Shown here piece after piece: positions 10,570 to 34,641 of a stretch of DNA of 34,641 nt. The DNA is from Lama guanicoe. Taxonomy: Eukaryota. Below the pieces are notes generated by a model that worked only from the letters and a program-made list of their open reading frames with translations, was not told the DNA's origin and made no database searches. Location of the stretch: contig MU053785.1 of NCBI GenBank assembly GCA_013239625.1, forward strand, positions 1 through 34,641. The letters are read 5' to 3'. Both the position numbers and the translations under genes were made by a program. Within the stretch, counting starts at the first letter, position 1, and every line of letters begins with the position of its first letter.

Positions 10570-10736
10570 ATCAAATGGAGCTGAGCTGGACTGGGCACTC
10601 TGCCCCCACGGTTCCCCGAAGCAGCCACTGAAAGGAAGGAGGAGACCCACGGCAATGATCCGCGAGCAAAGCTGCTCTGCTTCTTCTGGAGGCCCGTTCT
10701 CCTGCTGGCTGAACAGCTTCTCCAACAGAGTTCGCC
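10570..10736 (-). CDS. FMN2: Internal exon homologous to formin-2 exon 2; authentic FMN2 or a duplicated fragment
   Basis: Acceptor tctcacccgcag|GG and donor GAT|gtaagt. Length 167 nt, phase 1 to phase 0, no stop. Translates [56 protein letters not shown], matching recalled human FMN2 [56 protein letters not shown]. No other FMN2 exon recognised in the window. Confidence 0.88.
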
Positions 10737-11994
10737 CTGCGGGTGAGACACGGTCATTAGGCGGGAGCACTGGCAGGTCCCCTGGCTCAGAACTCCCCCG
10801 AGGAGAGGCCAGCAACACAGCCTGTGGAACACTGTTGCCAAGGCTACGGACTTGCGCAGAGAGAGCTCTGCAGTCAGGCCTGGGACACCACACTGGACAG
10901 GGGAGCTCTGGTTCACACCCACATCCTCCAAAACAACTCCTACTCCCGAAAAGGATGGGTCCCGTTATGAGTCCTACCTCTTCTTGTACCTGCAGAAGCA
11001 CCCGACCTTCTGGATTTCTTTGGAAACCCCCCTTCTGCTCTGTGTTATCCCTGCCCCTGGCTCTCTGAGGAAGAAGTCAGTAGCCACCATTTGGGCTAAG
11101 AAATGTCAGTGGCTAACATTCAGTCTGGGATGTGGCAATGGGGAGGGGGAGGAATAAGGAAACAGGGAGGTAGGCACCAGCCTCTGAGTAGGGGAGAGGG
11201 CTGGCCAGAAGGAAAATTCACTCAGAAGAGGAAAATGTTAGAAACGCAAAATTTTCTTCTATGCACCTCAGAAACATAACTCTAGGGTAGGTCTACACAG
11301 CAGGCTTTTATTATTTCCCTAAAAGAGATAAGAAAAGAGAGGCACAAGGAGAGGAGGACACTGGCTGAGGACCGGGGCCCACCTGTCCCACGGTTCTCGG
11401 TCCCGGTCCTGGCTGTCCCTCAGATCACCTGAGAGCAGAATGAAGGGGACGGGGACTCAGGCATCAGTACCTGACTGGGCACCAACTGATTCCAACCTCA
11501 GCCAGAGCTGAGAGCTGCAAGTCTAGTCCCTCATCCATTTCTGAAGCTACTCATTCTGACTCATCATCCTTTGGGAAGTTAGTCAGCAGGTGTCTGCACT
11601 AACCGTAGGAGAACTACAACGTCTCCCCGGTCCCGTCCAGGGCCGCCCGCGGGTCACTCAGCCCCGGCCCTGCTCCTGCCCACCCTCCCACCAACAGAGT
11701 CAGTCCTCAGACTTAAAGTCACTCATCCAGAAAAGCTTCCAGTGACCCCTTCCACACTCTTATGGCATCCTTCAAAGCTTCTTTGTGTAATTATTTTAGT
11801 TAATTATTTGTGCAATTATTAATTTAATGTCTGCCTCCCTTACTAAAACAACCTCTCTGACAGCCAGCACACATCCTGCAAATTCGGCCACTTGCACATA
11901 AGAAATATGAAAACATATTTTTAGGATTTCTAAATGAATACAATGTTACGATTCTCTGATGAAGATTCATTCGCACCATGGTCGGAAGTGGAAA

Positions 11995-18094: not shown

Positions 18095-18331
18095 CCTTTT
18101 TTTTTCCTCAAAGGCTCTGTACTTGGATAAATAAAAATTTGTCTCAATTTAATGGAAGTCATAAGTAAATAATGGAATCATAAGAATGTACCCAGAATCT
18201 AAAAGAAAAAATATAAGCAAGGTTAACACAGATTAAAATATCTTCAACCATCAAGTGTTTTTTTTTACATTTAGCGTATGTTAATTATATCAACAAGGTA
18301 AATATTTATGATTTTCCTAGCTACAATTCTT

Positions 18332-19035
18332 TTTTTTTAACATTTTTTATTGATTTATAATCATTTTACAATGTTGTGTCAAATTCCAGTGTTCAGCACA
18401 ATTTTTCAGTCATTCATGGACATATACACACTCATTGTCACATTTTTTTCTCTGTGATTTATCATAACATTTTGTGTATATTTCCCTGTGCTATACAGTG
18501 TAATCTTGTTTATCTATTCTACAGTTTTGAAATCCCAGTCTATCCCTTCCCACCCTCTACCCCCCTGGTAACCACAAGTCTGTATTCTCTGTCCATGAGT
18601 CTTTAGATTCCACATATGAGCGATCTCATATGGTATTTTTCTTTCTCTTTCTGGCTTACTTCACTTAGAATGACATTCTCTAGGAGCATCCATGTTGCTG
18701 CAAATGGCGTTATGTTGTCGGTTTTTATGGCTGAGTAGTATTCCATTGTATAAATATACCACATCTTCTTTATCCAGTCACCTGTTGATGGACATTTAGG
18801 CTGTTTCCATGTTTTGGCTATTGTAAATAGTGCTGCTATGAACATTGGAGTGCAGGTGTCATCCTGAAGTAGATTTCCTTCTGGATACAAGCCCAGGAGT
18901 GGGATTCCTGGGTCATATGGTAAGTCTATTCCTAGTCTTTTGAGGAATCTCCACACTGTTTTCCATAGTGGCTGCACCAAACTGCATTCCCACCAGCAGT
19001 GTAGGAGGGTTCCCCTTTCTCCACAGCCTCTCCAG
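18332..19035 (-). mobile_element. Young 5'-truncated L1 (ORF2 C-terminus and 3' UTR)
   Basis: Open ORF2 end at 18603-18980 ([13 protein letters not shown]...YTMEYYSAIK), poly-T at left, perfect 16-bp TSD cctagctacaattctt at 18316-18331 and 19036-19051. Confidence 0.95.
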
Positions 19036-19260
19036 CCTAGCTACAATTCTTAACTTCAGTTTAAAAAAAGATGCTTTCATTGTCTGTTTTACTATTTTAT
19101 TAAATTAATGATAAAATCATATTCACCCAATGACAGTCAGGGAACTTACTAATCATTAATGCTCTCCAATTATTTCTGCACTAATTCCCTCTCCCTCCTC
19201 CCACATACACTTACACACTAATAACTTTAGCACGTGGAATCGCTTTGCAGGCTTAAGCTA

Positions 19261-28310: not shown

Positions 28311-29100
28311 ATTGCGTGGACACCAGTTCACATAACCCGTCTCCACCCTGAGGCGCAGCCCCGCCCCCAGACCACAGGAGCCAATCCGCGCTCGCGCTTC
28401 CCGGCCCCGCCCCAGAGCTCTCCTGAGCTGCGCCCCTCCCTCCGCCTACCGGCCCGCCAGTTGGTCAGGCAGGGAAGCGGCGGGCGGCGGTTGGCAGTTG
28501 GTCTGAGCGTCTGGCCGTTCCGACGCCCCGCAGCTCCCCTGAGGCTGTTGCTGTGGTGGCGGCGGCGGCGCGGTCCCTCCGGGAGGAGCGGCATGGGCCG
28601 AGCGGCGCCCGCGGAGTGTTGAGCCCAGCACGGCGGCAGCAGTGGAGACGGCGGCAGGCGCGGGCCCCGAGCTGGTCCGCGGGCAGGTGTTCGACGTGGG
28701 GCCGCGCTCCAGCAGTCTCATCCTCGAGGGCTCCTACCGCGTGGTGTGGTGAGTGTCCGCGCCCCGCGTGCCGGCCACGCCCGCCCGGCCTCCCGCTCCG
28801 CCTCGTCGAATGCGACCGTTGCCCCGGCCTGACCCGCGACTCCGACCCTGGCCGGACCGCAGCCGGGCTGCCCCGTCGTCCGCGCGCCGGGGGTCTCGAG
28901 CGGGGTCGGGTCGCTTGGGCGGGGGCGTTACTCGCAGCGCTTCCCGGGCGGCCCTCGATGGCCCGCGGAGTGGGGGAGGGGAGCTGGGGTCGGAGGCCGG
29001 GACCCGGGGAACCCGGGACCTCAGGACGCGAACGGACCCCCACCCCAGAGTGCTCGCCTAGCGGCCTTCCCTTGACGTCCCCATAGTGAAGCCGCGAATT
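28310..29100 (+). promoter_or_regulatory. CpG island promoter derived from MAPK1
   Basis: Very GC- and CpG-dense. GC boxes (ccccgcccc near 28359 and 28405) and CCAAT at 28381-28385 lie just upstream of the MAPK1-like exon. No TATA box. Confidence 0.8.
28430..28748 (+). pseudogene. MAPK1: Degenerate unprocessed copy of MAPK1 (ERK2) exon 1, probably now a non-coding first exon
   Basis: 28630-28748 reads (T)[38 protein letters not shown] versus ERK2 [40 protein letters not shown]. It ends at the MAPK1 exon 1 boundary GTGTG|gtgagt (donor at 28749). Upstream sequence resembles the MAPK1 5' UTR (gcccctccctccgcc; ggcggcggcgcggtccct). No in-frame ATG. Confidence 0.9.
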
Positions 29101-30148: not shown

Positions 30149-30827
30149 NNNNNNNNNNNNNNNNNNNNNNNNNNNNNNNNNNNNNNNNNNNNNNNNNNNN
30201 NNNNNNNNNNNNNNNNNNNNNNNNNNNNNNNNNNNNNNNNNNNNNNNNNNNNNNNNNNNNNNNNNNNNNNNNNNNNNNNNNNNNNNNNNNNNNNNNNNNN
30301 NNNNNNNNNNNNNNNNNNNNNNNNNNNNNNNNNNNNNNNNNNNNNNNNNNNNNNNNNNNNNNNNNNNNNNNNNNNNNNNNNNNNNNNNNNNNNNNNNNNN
30401 NNNNNNNNNNNNNNNNNNNNNNNNNNNNNNNNNNNNNNNNNNNNNNNNNNNNNNNNNNNNNNNNNNNNNNNNNNNNNNNNNNNNNNNNNNNNNNNNNNNN
30501 NNNNNNNNNNNNNNNNNNNNNNNNNNNNNNNNNNNNNNNNNNNNNNNNNNNNNNNNNNNNNNNNNNNNNNNNNNNNNNNNNNNNNNNNNNNNNNNNNNNN
30601 NNNNNNNNNNNNNNNNNNNNNNNNNNNNNNNNNNNNNNNNNNNNNNNNNNNNNNNNNNNNNNNNNNNNNNNNNNNNNNNNNNNNNNNNNNNNNNNNNNNN
30701 NNNNNNNNNNNNNNNNNNNNNNNNNNNNNNNNNNNNNNNNNNNNNNNNNNNNNNNNNNNNNNNNNNNNNNNNNNNNNNNNNNNNNNNNNNNNNNNNNNNN
30801 NNNNNNNNNNNNNNNNNNNNNNNNNNA
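30149..30827. other. Assembly gap (679 N)
   Basis: Run of N. Confidence 1.
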
Positions 30828-31356
30828 AAAAAAAATGCGTGTAAACATGTTTCAGACTGTGCTTAGCATGTGTTCAGTATCCACTAAGACTCTTGTCTTT
30901 TCCCCTTGGTTTCATCAGGCAGCTGCTTGTTTTGTTTGTTTTTAAGGAACCAGCCTTTAGATTTCTTTCTTTCTTAATTTCTCAGTTCTCTCATTCATTT
31001 ATATCTGTTTTCATTTTTCCGTCTTTTACCTTCTTTTAGGATTTCTTGCTGATCTCATAGTGTCTTCATTTATTGAAAATTCAATTGCACACCTTCCACA
31101 CACCAGGCTTTGTGCCACGTGTTGGGAATGCAGTGGTCAGCAGATAAAGATGCCCTGTCCCCAGGAAGCTTATAGTTGAGCCCAGAATTTAATTCTCTTT
31201 AATTAATAATAAAAATATATCTATATACAGATACATAGGCATATGTATGAGTGTAGATATGGCTGCTTTCTGTAATTTTTGTTATAGAGTCATATTCTCA
31301 TCATTGTCTAAATCTCTACTGTATAATGTTGAATCATAGAAAATTGTTGATATTCA

Positions 31357-31760
31357 GGATCAACACAGGATCAACCCAAAGAGGAACACACCAAGGCACA
31401 TGGTCATCAAATTGACCAAAATAAAGGATAAGGAGAAAATATTAAAATTAGCAGTAGAAAAGCAACAAAAAACATACAAGGGAACTCCCATAAGGCTATC
31501 AGCTGATTTTTCAGCAGAAACTCTACAGGCCAGAAGGGAGTGGCACGATATATTTAAAGTAATGAAAGGGGAAAATTTACAACCGAGAATACTCTTTCCA
31601 TCCAAAGTGTCACAGATAAATGGAAGCTAAAAGATTTCAGCACCACCAAACCAGCTTTACAACAAGTGTTAAAGGACCTTCTTTAGTCATCAAACCATAA
31701 GAAAAGAAAACAAAAAGAAGAAAGTGGAGAAAAAAATAAAAAAGACAGACCTACAAAAGA
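31357..31760 (+). mobile_element. L1 ORF1 C-terminal fragment
   Basis: Encodes KDKEKILKLAVEKQQKTYKGTPIRLSADFSAETLQARREWHDIFKVMK, typical of L1 ORF1p. Confidence 0.9.
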
Positions 31761-32280
31761 TTGCTTTGGCTGTTCAGTGTCTTTTATGGTTCCTTACAAA
31801 TTTTGGAATTGTTTGTTCTAGTTCTGTGAAGAATGTCATGAATATTTTGATGGGGCTGCATTGGATCTGTGGGTTGCTTTGGGCAGTGTGGCCATTTTGA
31901 TAGTGTTGATTATTAAAATCCAAGAGCACAAGAAGTCTTTCCATTTCTTTGTGTCATTTCAGTTTTCAGGATATAGGTAACCTCCTTGGATAAGTTTATT
32001 TCTAGGTATTTTGTTGTTTTTCATGTAATAGAACTGCCTCTGCCAGTTAAAAATGTCTGGTTTTTGAAGTGAAAAGAAAAGTGAATGAAGGGCAGCAAAT
32101 GGCAAAATATCCTTCTTTTTTATGAGTGAGTTGTATTCATATATATATATATATGATATATATATATACTGCATCTTCTTTATCTATTCAACTATTGATG
32201 TACACTTAAGATGCTTCCTTATCTCAGCAATTATAAATAATGTTGCTGTTAATAGCAAGGCATATGTATCTTTTTCAATT
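31760..32280 (-). mobile_element. L1 ORF2 fragments, antisense and discontinuous
   Basis: ttgctttggctgttcagtgtcttttatggttcc...ttgctttgggcagtgtggccatttt, followed by gcaaatggcaaaatatccttc...catcttctttatctattc. Confidence 0.8.
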
Positions 32281-32414
32281 AATTCTTATTTTGTGGTTGG
32301 CTTTATTCCTTTGATAATGATGTAAGTTTAAAAAGCTAAAGTGCTAAACGTTCTTACAAACAATAAACAGTTCATATAGGTAAATTTTAAAAATATAGTT
32401 GCAGTAAAAAAAAA

Positions 32415-32912
32415 GCTAAAGCCATGAGAGACAGGGAAGTAACTTAAAAGACCTATTACTAAATGAAAAGAGCCAGTCTGAAAAGGCTACAAACTGTAGG
32501 ATTCCAACCAAATGACATTCTGGAAAAGGCACAGCTACAGAAACAATAAAAAGATCCTGGGGAGAGGGAGGGAGGGATGAATAGATGGTGCACAAGGGAT
32601 TTTTAGGGCAATGAAATTATTCTGTGTGATTCTATAGTGGCTACATGTCATGATGCATTTGTCAAAGCCCACAGAATGTACAACATCAAGAGTGAACCCT
32701 AATGTAAACTATAGACTTTGGTTGATAATAATGTGCCCATGTTGGTTCATCAGTTGTACCAAACATGCCACACTGATGCGGAATGTTGAGGCTAGGGGAG
32801 TATGTGTGTGTGGTGGTGATGATGAGGGATATGTGTGAACACTCTGTATTGTCTGCTCAATTCTGCTGTGAATCTGAAACTGCTCAAAAAGAATAAAGTC
32901 TATTAAAAAAAA
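32415..32912 (+). mobile_element. L1MC-type 3' end
   Basis: agccagtctgaaaaggctac, tttgtcaaagcccacagaatgtacaac, gtgaaccctaatgtaaactat, then aataaagtctattaaaaa. Confidence 0.85.
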
Positions 32913-33715
32913 NNNNNNNNNNNNNNNNNNNNNNNNNNNNNNNNNNNNNNNNNNNNNNNNNNNNNNNNNNNNNNNNNNNNNNNNNNNNNNNNNNNNNNNN
33001 NNNNNNNNNNNNNNNNNNNNNNNNNNNNNNNNNNNNNNNNNNNNNNNNNNNNNNNNNNNNNNNNNNNNNNNNNNNNNNNNNNNNNNNNNNNNNNNNNNNN
33101 NNNNNNNNNNNNNNNNNNNNNNNNNNNNNNNNNNNNNNNNNNNNNNNNNNNNNNNNNNNNNNNNNNNNNNNNNNNNNNNNNNNNNNNNNNNNNNNNNNNN
33201 NNNNNNNNNNNNNNNNNNNNNNNNNNNNNNNNNNNNNNNNNNNNNNNNNNNNNNNNNNNNNNNNNNNNNNNNNNNNNNNNNNNNNNNNNNNNNNNNNNNN
33301 NNNNNNNNNNNNNNNNNNNNNNNNNNNNNNNNNNNNNNNNNNNNNNNNNNNNNNNNNNNNNNNNNNNNNNNNNNNNNNNNNNNNNNNNNNNNNNNNNNNN
33401 NNNNNNNNNNNNNNNNNNNNNNNNNNNNNNNNNNNNNNNNNNNNNNNNNNNNNNNNNNNNNNNNNNNNNNNNNNNNNNNNNNNNNNNNNNNNNNNNNNNN
33501 NNNNNNNNNNNNNNNNNNNNNNNNNNNNNNNNNNNNNNNNNNNNNNNNNNNNNNNNNNNNNNNNNNNNNNNNNNNNNNNNNNNNNNNNNNNNNNNNNNNN
33601 NNNNNNNNNNNNNNNNNNNNNNNNNNNNNNNNNNNNNNNNNNNNNNNNNNNNNNNNNNNNNNNNNNNNNNNNNNNNNNNNNNNNNNNNNNNNNNNNNNNN
33701 NNNNNNNNNNNNNNN
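32913..33715. other. Assembly gap (803 N) hiding the 5' part of the cTAGE-like ORF
   Basis: Run of N; the ORF is already open at the right edge. Confidence 1.
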
Positions 33716-33716
33716 A

Positions 33717-33998
33717 GAGAAGGAGCCAGTAAACGTACCCAGCCTCACTAAGGCTTACAGACACTTGATGACGGTCAACCTGAGTTCAAGGAAGGAAATC
33801 ACTTTTCTCATTGAAGAACTGAGGAAAGAGAGATCCCTGCAGTCTATTCAAGCAGAGGTGGTGGAGATGCTGAAACTGCGCACGTTCCTAGAAGAGGTCA
33901 CGAGAATCAGCACATCACAAGGGGCTGTTACAAACCAGCCAGGGGACCAGGCACCAAACCTTGATGATCCCTTTCCCAGGAGTGGGCCCTCGTATTAA
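33717..33998 (+). CDS. 3' part of a diverged cTAGE5/MIA2-like retrocopy ORF; 5' end in the gap; retrogene or processed pseudogene
   Basis: Open from the gap edge to TAA at 33996-33998. EKEPVNVPSLTKAYRHLMTVNLSSRKEITFLIEELRKERSLQSIQAEVVEMLKLRTFLEEVTRISTSQ aligns with one gap to recalled cTAGE5 [69 protein letters not shown]. The following DPFPRSGP resembles cTAGE5 GPFLRRGP. Confidence 0.72.
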   Translation, partial: EKEPVNVPSLTKAYRHLMTVNLSSRKEITFLIEELRKERSLQSIQAEVVEMLKLRTFLEEVTRISTSQGAVTNQPGDQAPNLDDPFPRSGPSY

Positions 33999-34580
33999 AG
34001 CTTTGCTGTGCCCTCCCCTCCACCCAGGCCTCCCAAGCTGCCGGGCTGCATTCACTCACCCTGTCAGATCTCCACCTGCGCTGCAAGGAGGCCAGTGGAT
34101 GGAGGAGCATCCCCTCCTTTGGACCAGAGTCCCTCCAACTGTACCAGTGAGCACAGCAGTGAACTTCTTCATGGTCACCTTCTCCATCTCAAATGTATGG
34201 AATTCCCAGAAAACACCAAGAAATGTGGGACTTTCTCAATATTCACAGAATGCTCGAATTGTCTCTAATTAGCAGTGAAAGAAATGTGTTTAAGAGACTG
34301 ATCTTTTACTCAGTTTGAACCTTCCTTGCACCACATTTCTTAAGGCAGTTTTAGTAGCTATTGTACATCAATTGTAGAAATGTATATATAGGTTTCTGTA
34401 TACAAATATTGCAGTATAATTAGATAACACATGTAGTTTATCAGTATAGAGTTTAAGTTGGCCATAGTATTTTTTCTAGAGTTGAAATCTTAAAAGTCAT
34501 CAGTTTAAGGAAATGAGTTTTTATACTTATATTCTGTCATAACAATAGATATATTTAAAAATAAATTTGGTGAATTTCAT
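33999..34580 (+). other. Putative 3' UTR of the cTAGE-like gene, containing the decayed cTAGE5 C-terminus
   Basis: About 34146-34230 encodes SEHSSELLHG, similar to cTAGE5 SEGRSEFPSG, and contains ccagaaaacaccaagaaa, similar to the PEPQQET codons. gactgatcttttactcagttt near 34296 resembles the recalled CTAGE5 3' UTR. The rest is AT-rich. Confidence 0.55.
34560..34565 (+). terminator. Polyadenylation signal AATAAA
   Basis: AATAAA followed about 13 nt later by CA and then a T/GT-rich tract (ttgtttctttttcc). Confidence 0.5.
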
Positions 34581-34641
34581 GGAGATTGTTTCTTTTTCCT
34601 GCAGTAATGCTACAGTATGAGTTTTCTGACCAAACCAAGAA

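Follow-up and report, generated by a model that had tools for sequence, protein, structure and literature searches.

A probably relaxed copy of a short, multicopy cTAGE5-like protein family in guanaco DNA

The window, by which we mean the whole 34,641-nt stretch of Lama guanicoe DNA analysed here, contains near its 3' end a reading frame that emerges from an assembly gap and belongs to a family of short coiled-coil proteins, here termed mini-cTAGE5. A decayed copy of MAPK1 (ERK2) exon 1 lies 4-5 kb upstream of this frame. The features discussed below are the following.

28400-28754, + strand: decayed MAPK1 (ERK2) exon 1 in a CpG island (ERK2 match, E 1.7e-6)
32913-33715, no strand: assembly gap of 803 N, with room for 116 missing codons (348 nt)
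33717-33998, + strand: 3' half of the mini-cTAGE5 family frame, 93 codons plus TAA (open reading frame and homology)
33717-33911, + strand: distal coiled-coil helix, boundaries approximate (placed by projecting helix 124-182 of the P0028 model)
33912-33995, + strand: short disordered Pro/Gly tail up to the family-wide stop (P0028 model and family alignment)
33999-34270, + strand: 3' UTR common to the mini-cTAGE5 family, with an in-frame PPP run just past the stop (family comparison)
34560-34565, + strand: AATAAA, candidate polyadenylation signal (sequence)

Beginning at the border of the N gap, the frame has 93 codons without a stop (33717-33995, + strand); it ends in ...DPFPRSGPSY and is closed by the TAA at 33996-33998. 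It corresponds to residues 117-210 of the 210-aa family member P0028. Only 0.85% of shuffled 279-nt stretches of the same composition stay open (20000 shuffles), and the homology with family proteins settles that the frame is real. After the TAA, the same frame reads SFAVPSPPPRPP..., and the PPP run is thus located downstream of the stop. Four family proteins (P0008, P0009, P0025 and P0026) align over 33999-34270 in shifted frames, and we propose that this region is a remnant of the parent's proline-rich C-terminus; the post-stop frame found no support as a conserved protein (E 0.42). The join of coil 1 to a distal proline-rich region fits what we take to be the cTAGE5 layout. The preliminary description, made from the letters alone, had placed the stop ahead of a polyproline run and had judged the upstream gap large enough for the missing N-terminus, and both points hold, the 803 N exceeding the 348 nt needed. 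The 5' half of the frame was not found elsewhere within the window.

Searches with the 93-aa peptide place it in a protein family. Among longer proteins, two of 94 candidates matched, both from Camelus, with 86% and 84% identity to the peptide. A library clustered at 50% returned 24 matches, 22 of which are mini-cTAGE5 family members at 33-89% identity; the remaining two (P0016 and P0027) are unrelated repeat and sensor proteins and were dropped. With four more members, the family set comprises 26 proteins, all of which are predictions in which some frame breaks may be errors. The models LOC116156032 (P0003), LOC141579233 (P0029), LOC116666871 (P0030) and CB1_002658001 (P0004) from camels belong to the same family as the window copy and are annotated merely as uncharacterized or hypothetical. 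No paper on the family was found in open-licence PMC and bioRxiv, and MIA2, CTAGE and MAPK1 are unmentioned in the main text of the alpaca genome and Y papers (PMC6598621, PMC7830431). The short cTAGE5 family is real and appears to be undescribed.

The family members reveal the probable layout of the missing half. In the C. ferus homolog P0004, whose 203-aa form spans residues 89-291, 115 residues precede the position equivalent to the window's first codon, and this layout predicts about 209 aa for the window copy if the gap is intact. P0028, P0010 and P0021 are 210, 205 and 202 aa long, respectively, and all stop where the window does. The same position is the end of 9 of the 26 family proteins, while the other 17 depart from the frame, end prematurely, continue past the stop or are fusions with other sequence; in P0005, the family coiled coil is fused to an aminotransferase-like stretch. 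A transmembrane helix is present ahead of the coiled coil in the full-length homologs, with a 19-residue hydropathy peak of 1.9-2.6 at residues 39-50 in seven full-length members (133 in the fused model P0004), and the equivalent stretch of the window copy lies inside the gap. The Camelus homologs and P0028, P0010 and P0021 thereby bear out the prediction of a product about 210 aa long that has a transmembrane helix near its N-terminus and lacks the proline-rich domain.

The AlphaFold model of P0028 (mean pLDDT 71, pTM 0.28) contains two long helices after the N-terminus. Specifically, an N-terminal helix is followed by a long one (33-118), within which the hydrophobic stretch lies, then by a second long helix (124-182) and a disordered tail. 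In a protein tree of 25 rows, from which P0020 and P0029 were omitted as too short, the window copy groups with P0003, P0004, P0009 and P0030 at 100/100, in a group whose internal order is not resolved. The ESM Atlas cluster nearest to P0028 has 69 members, with Chordata the commonest. The divergence within the family suggests a wide range across mammals, taxon names being attached to 4 of the 26 proteins, all Camelus.

The frames of P0021 and P0028 are collinear with the window over 91 codons at 33-46% identity. Assuming one indel per 12 substitutions, which is a rough rate, the neutral survival of an open frame is about 2% when the DNA has diverged by 15% and falls to near 0 at 25%. Furthermore, the best 12 of the 25 indels among paralogous contigs all fall 3' of the stop and none in the frame; they represent about six independent events in 33999-34210, in a UTR with a C-rich tract. 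Against distant members, a mild conservative bias of the mismatches was seen in 4 of 10 comparisons (P<=0.05), an outcome that local alignment favours. Collinear frames and a common stop at 33-55% identity indicate that the source lineage was selected for most of its history, and it is very unlikely that the mini-cTAGE5 design arose by neutral decay without having been selected somewhere in the family. The DNA loci of the relatives were not found in metagenome, genome or viral contigs.

The query 33716-34641 was compared with the contigs of two camelid-like DNA runs and two RNA runs. The DNA runs contain 194 and 297 family contigs, most at 80-95% identity, 27 and 35 of them at 99% or more and 126 and 205 below 95%, and a single site has an alternative letter in up to 26 contigs of one run. 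The locus, which had been presented as a lone gene, is accordingly one of many copies; contig depths were used neither for copy number nor for expression level. P0004 joins two N-termini on one 18.7-kb contig, pieces of two copies, which suggests that copies can be neighbours. At 34255 and 34257, every contig of both DNA runs has a letter different from the window's, and the window's letters there are likely assembly errors or private variants.

The RNA runs X16 and X20 contain 146 and 116 family contigs, respectively, of which 8 and 4 reach 99% or more, and the contigs over the frame, among those listed, are 81-88% identical to the window. One RNA run is labelled reproductive system, and contigs of X16 and X20 cannot show transcription or the source copy. 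The RNA libraries contain relatives of the window copy, from which the window copy's own transcription does not follow. In X16 and X20, which have just 4-5% of words in common with the query, no RNA contig has the window's letter at 33958 or 33967. The last 8 of 30 bins are uncovered in X20, from which a 3' end cannot be deduced.

The recent history of the window copy looks different from that of the family. In the dromedary model P0003, the frame is likewise open across the 92 codons compared, and 79 of 92 residues are identical to the window copy, while the neighbouring MAPK1 pseudo-exon, read in frame, is identical to P0003 at 56 of 65 positions. The frame is thus no closer to P0003 than the pseudo-exon is, which indicates neutral-looking drift, although constraint on this CpG-rich comparator is itself conceivable. 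Consistent with drift, seven of the eight window-private changes in the frame (relative to the contig majority, among the best 40 of 291 sites) are nonsynonymous, with a neutral expectation of 0.70-0.76; the probability of such a count is 0.01-0.03 if dN/dS is 0.3 and 0.06-0.12 if it is 0.5. Three of the eight alter conserved tail positions (codons 81, 82 and 84), and these letters are not assembly errors, because a minority of the DNA contigs carry them too. Where the window differs from P0003 and P0004, the replacements show no more conservatism than under simulated neutrality (P=0.70 and 0.64).

Retention of hydrophobic residues was also considered as evidence of selection and rejected: it is no better than neutral, with 0 of 12 comparisons at P<0.05, and the kept hydrophobic heptad positions, previously read as a mark of selection, lose that meaning. 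Two of the three MAPK1-linked camel models (P0029 and P0030) shift frame near codon 16 of the window segment, into QQPHQQTVDD, and a loose end of RNA run X20 at 33757 reads, by eye, the same shifted stretch; frame breaks in orthologues had been named beforehand as a sign against selection. The neutral survival of an open frame at 5-8% divergence is about 13-29%, and some open frames are expected among many copies, so that the openness of this one is compatible with neutral decay. The family evolves fast even where it is intact, so a dN/dS near 1 over eight changes does not distinguish decay from selection that is weak or positive. In these small numbers, no purifying selection on the window copy since the camel split was detected, and we infer that the copy is neutral. 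The claim in the preliminary description of selection rather than neutral decay therefore stands for the family design, with its collinear frames and common stop, and finds no support for the window copy, whose recent divergence is neutral-looking. On the sequence comparisons made, the window copy probably (roughly 0.65) descends from an old mini-cTAGE5 family as a duplicate that is relaxed or dead.

The strongest alternative, that the window copy is a working gene for a membrane-anchored protein of about 209 aa under selection, appears unlikely. The absence of any stop or frameshift in the 93 codons up to the family stop, the room in the gap, the open frame of P0003 across the same 92 codons and the location of the best 12 of 25 paralogous-contig indels beyond the stop would all suit it. 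However, the indel pattern tells of the family's source lineage, not of this copy, and the neutral-looking divergence, the loss of three conserved tail residues and the frameshifts in P0029 and P0030 speak for a relaxed or dead duplicate, to which the absence of the window's letters at 33958 and 33967 from X16 and X20, runs with little overlap in words, adds little.

The copy of MAPK1 exon 1 has a two-codon deletion and no Met in its open frame, and it keeps the splice donor GTGAGT (28749-28754); CpG observed/expected in the island at 28.4-28.75 kb is 0.9-1.0. A second assembly gap (30149-30826, 678 N), which ends in an A-run, is located within the presumed MAPK1 intron copy and possibly conceals a young insertion. 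Models from three Camelus species (P0003, P0029 and P0030) splice the MAPK1 exon to the family frame just past the transmembrane stretch, and their same join indicates that the arrangement of MAPK1 and mini-cTAGE5 is common to Camelus and the window. The island and exon are possibly a borrowed promoter.

A functional chimeric unit, in which the duplicated MAPK1 promoter and exon 1 would be spliced to a cryptic acceptor, is improbable. The acceptor would lie at the end of the transmembrane-coding stretch, and the RNA would lack the anchor and encode at most a soluble coiled-coil fragment of about 100 aa from an internal Met. The three Camelus models make exactly such a join, P0030 lacks the hydrophobic helix, and the window retains the MAPK1 match (E 1.7e-6), the CpG island and the donor. 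These models are automatic, however, and two of the three are frameshifted downstream; moreover, the MAPK1-derived frame has no Met after a stop near 28540, and the acceptor position falls inside the gap. As a transcribed pseudogene, the chimeric unit can coexist with a relaxed or dead duplicate.

Upstream of the 803-nt gap, the region 31340-32912 contains what we take to be L1-like fragments in both orientations, including a presumed ORF1-like frame at 31340-31630 (+), and the gap is directly preceded by a presumably L1-like 3' end that carries an A-run. A further segment, at 18330-19040 (-), is presumably a young-looking L1 3' end with the C-terminal frame of ORF2 open for 145 codons. An exon-like frame at about 10570-11076 (-), followed by a GTAAG donor, gave no Pfam or PDB match, and we tentatively take it to be formin-2 (FMN2), either the true gene or a duplicate.

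The 926 bases at 33716-34641 are collinear with the family proteins and have no introns. An A-tail is absent from the remaining 76 bases 3' of the AATAAA at 34560, and the DNA contigs extend to the window's end, which together fit DNA-level duplication for the window copy. No convincing direct repeat flanks the copy among the repeats listed, its 5' end being inside the gap. High copy number, the many broken copies and the L1-like 3' end beside the gap, whose repeat identity is our assumption, might instead indicate that the copy was carried along by a mobile unit of L1 origin, which would have spread a truncated cTAGE5 fragment in camelids, with no working member in the family. This has only a slender chance of being correct, because members at 33-55% identity keep frame and stop, with 9 of 26 ending there, neutral survival at 15-25% divergence is about 2% or less, all seven full-length members retain the cTAGE5 residue K89 (see below), and the sequence past AATAAA continues in DNA contigs with no A-tail.

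The parent assigned to the family, cTAGE5, is the short isoform of MIA2 and an ER-exit-site scaffold of 804 aa. According to the binding experiments in Tanabe 2016 (PMC4927275), Sec12 binding maps to cTAGE5 aa 61-115, the mutants name R61, S65, S68, R69, Y71, E75, K76, K89, L93 and S97, and changing K89 alone reduces binding; in the same study, the equivalent segment of TANGO1, which starts at residue 1199, does not bind Sec12. Coil 2 (aa 301-650) is described as the TANGO1-binding part and the proline-rich domain (aa 651-804) as the Sec23-binding part (PMC4927275; bioRxiv 10.1101/452904; PMC4862334).

We used the ten spaced residues, leaving out L112, as a fingerprint, which was scored in homologs, the segment falling inside the gap for the window copy. 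The fingerprint is matched at 8 of 10 positions in P0010, P0018 and P0028 (0/5000 shuffles each), at 7 in P0009 and P0012, and at 6 in P0004 and P0021, with shuffle P values from 0/5000 to 0.007 across these seven full-length members; P0003, P0029 and P0030 match at 5 of 10 (shuffle P 0.04-0.09). The matches sit directly after the hydrophobic helix, at offsets of -6 to +6 relative to cTAGE5 numbering (P0004 counted from its second Met). Specifically, K89 is kept in 7/7 full-length members, E75 in 6/7 and K76 in 5/7, while L93 and S97 are both kept only in P0028 and are replaced in most full-length members.

The 93-aa peptide itself has no full-length MIA2/cTAGE5 match in word-limited or cluster-representative searches and no Pfam family, with sub-threshold coiled-coil matches only. 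The parent cTAGE5 was likewise not found by a profile search among longer proteins, in which the top 8000 word-sharing candidates were scored, or by PDB sequence searches, and the cTAGE5 link of the window peptide runs solely through family members. The identity of about 30% to cTAGE5 and the resemblance of tail and UTR to its C-terminus, both put forward in the preliminary description, were not confirmed in these searches. The ESM Atlas, a single source, gives neighbours that are TANGO1-like by features (0.93) and MIA2 isoform X8 by structure (TM 0.52). The fingerprint supports descent of the mini-cTAGE5 family from cTAGE5. A generic coiled coil without cTAGE5/MIA2 ancestry, or descent from TANGO1 (MIA3), is most improbable: a direct MIA2 match is absent from the searches made and the best named Atlas feature matches carry the TANGO1 label, but the fingerprint sits at nearly cTAGE5 numbering from the start Met, the TANGO1 segment begins at 1199 and lacks Sec12 binding in the reported experiments (PMC4927275), the structural neighbour in the Atlas is MIA2 isoform X8, and the MIA2 search scored just those 8000 candidates.

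The history that probably accounts best for the data as a whole is an old, much-copied retroderivative with a relaxed or dead copy in the window. An old intronless derivative of cTAGE5/MIA2 would have kept its N-terminus with the transmembrane helix and the beginning of coil 1, while an internal deletion would have removed the rest and a stop would have been acquired just ahead of the polyproline motifs. The resulting mini-cTAGE5 of about 205 aa would have been maintained by selection as an open frame, in one or more source genes of each lineage, and duplicated many times over. The window copy would lie within a duplicated mosaic block, downstream of the decayed MAPK1 exon, with its 3' half still open and drifting at the neutral rate. 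We infer the internal deletion, the retroposition and Sec12 binding; the frame, the family and its architecture, the multicopy state, the residue fingerprint and the MAPK1 neighbour are observed.

Working members may, tentatively, be an ER-anchored Sec12-binding module that has lost the TANGO1 and Sec23 contacts. Because cTAGE5 is reported to reach exit sites via TANGO1 (bioRxiv 10.1101/452904), such a protein would keep Sec12 away from these sites or place it elsewhere in the ER; that most members have replaced L93 and S97 counts against this role. Equally speculative is the broader picture, in which many mammals would carry an uncharacterised, fast-evolving, multicopy mini-cTAGE5 family whose ER-anchored Sec12 module, uncoupled from TANGO1 and Sec23, withholds the Sar1 exchange factor or moves it elsewhere, with reproductive tissue a plausible setting. 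Some camelid copies would stand behind a duplicated MAPK1 promoter, and the window copy would be a family member whether it works or not. The window locus alone matters little, being probably a spare copy in a duplicated block. The family, in turn, is a natural deletion construct of cTAGE5, with the Sec12-binding segment retained and the TANGO1- and Sec23-binding parts gone, and if its members do bind Sec12, they would regulate COPII in a new way, a possibility that published assays could test.

Compared with cTAGE5, the family shares an N-terminal membrane anchor followed by a coiled coil, and the full-length members retain the Sec12-binding segment with its residue spacing. In contrast to the 804-aa parent, members are about 205 aa long, fast-evolving and present in many copies. 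They end at 202-210 aa, with no room for coil 2 (aa 301-650), whose loss the preliminary description had also proposed, and the window's stop at 33996 precedes the PPP run, so that the Sec23-binding proline-rich domain is not encoded.

The closest parallel is the primate CTAGE cancer/testis family, which is described as a set of retroposed cTAGE5 derivatives that arose in the Haplorhini ancestor, multiplied by DNA duplication and remained highly homologous to cTAGE5 (PMC4949931), and which is reported to have coding members and pseudogenes (bioRxiv 10.1101/452904). Like the primate family, as those accounts present it, mini-cTAGE5 is cTAGE5-derived and has many copies, whereas it is found in camelids, is far more diverged and has a quarter of the length (about 205 aa). 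Its camelid occurrence, divergence and short length indicate an origin separate from that of the primate CTAGE family. The genomic setting resembles that of primate GOLGA6/GOLGA8 and NPIP and of rodent Speer/takusan, truncated coiled-coil genes in mosaic segmental duplications: in each case, a truncated coiled-coil gene is amplified in blocks that carry unrelated gene fragments, but the parent gene in those families is not cTAGE5.
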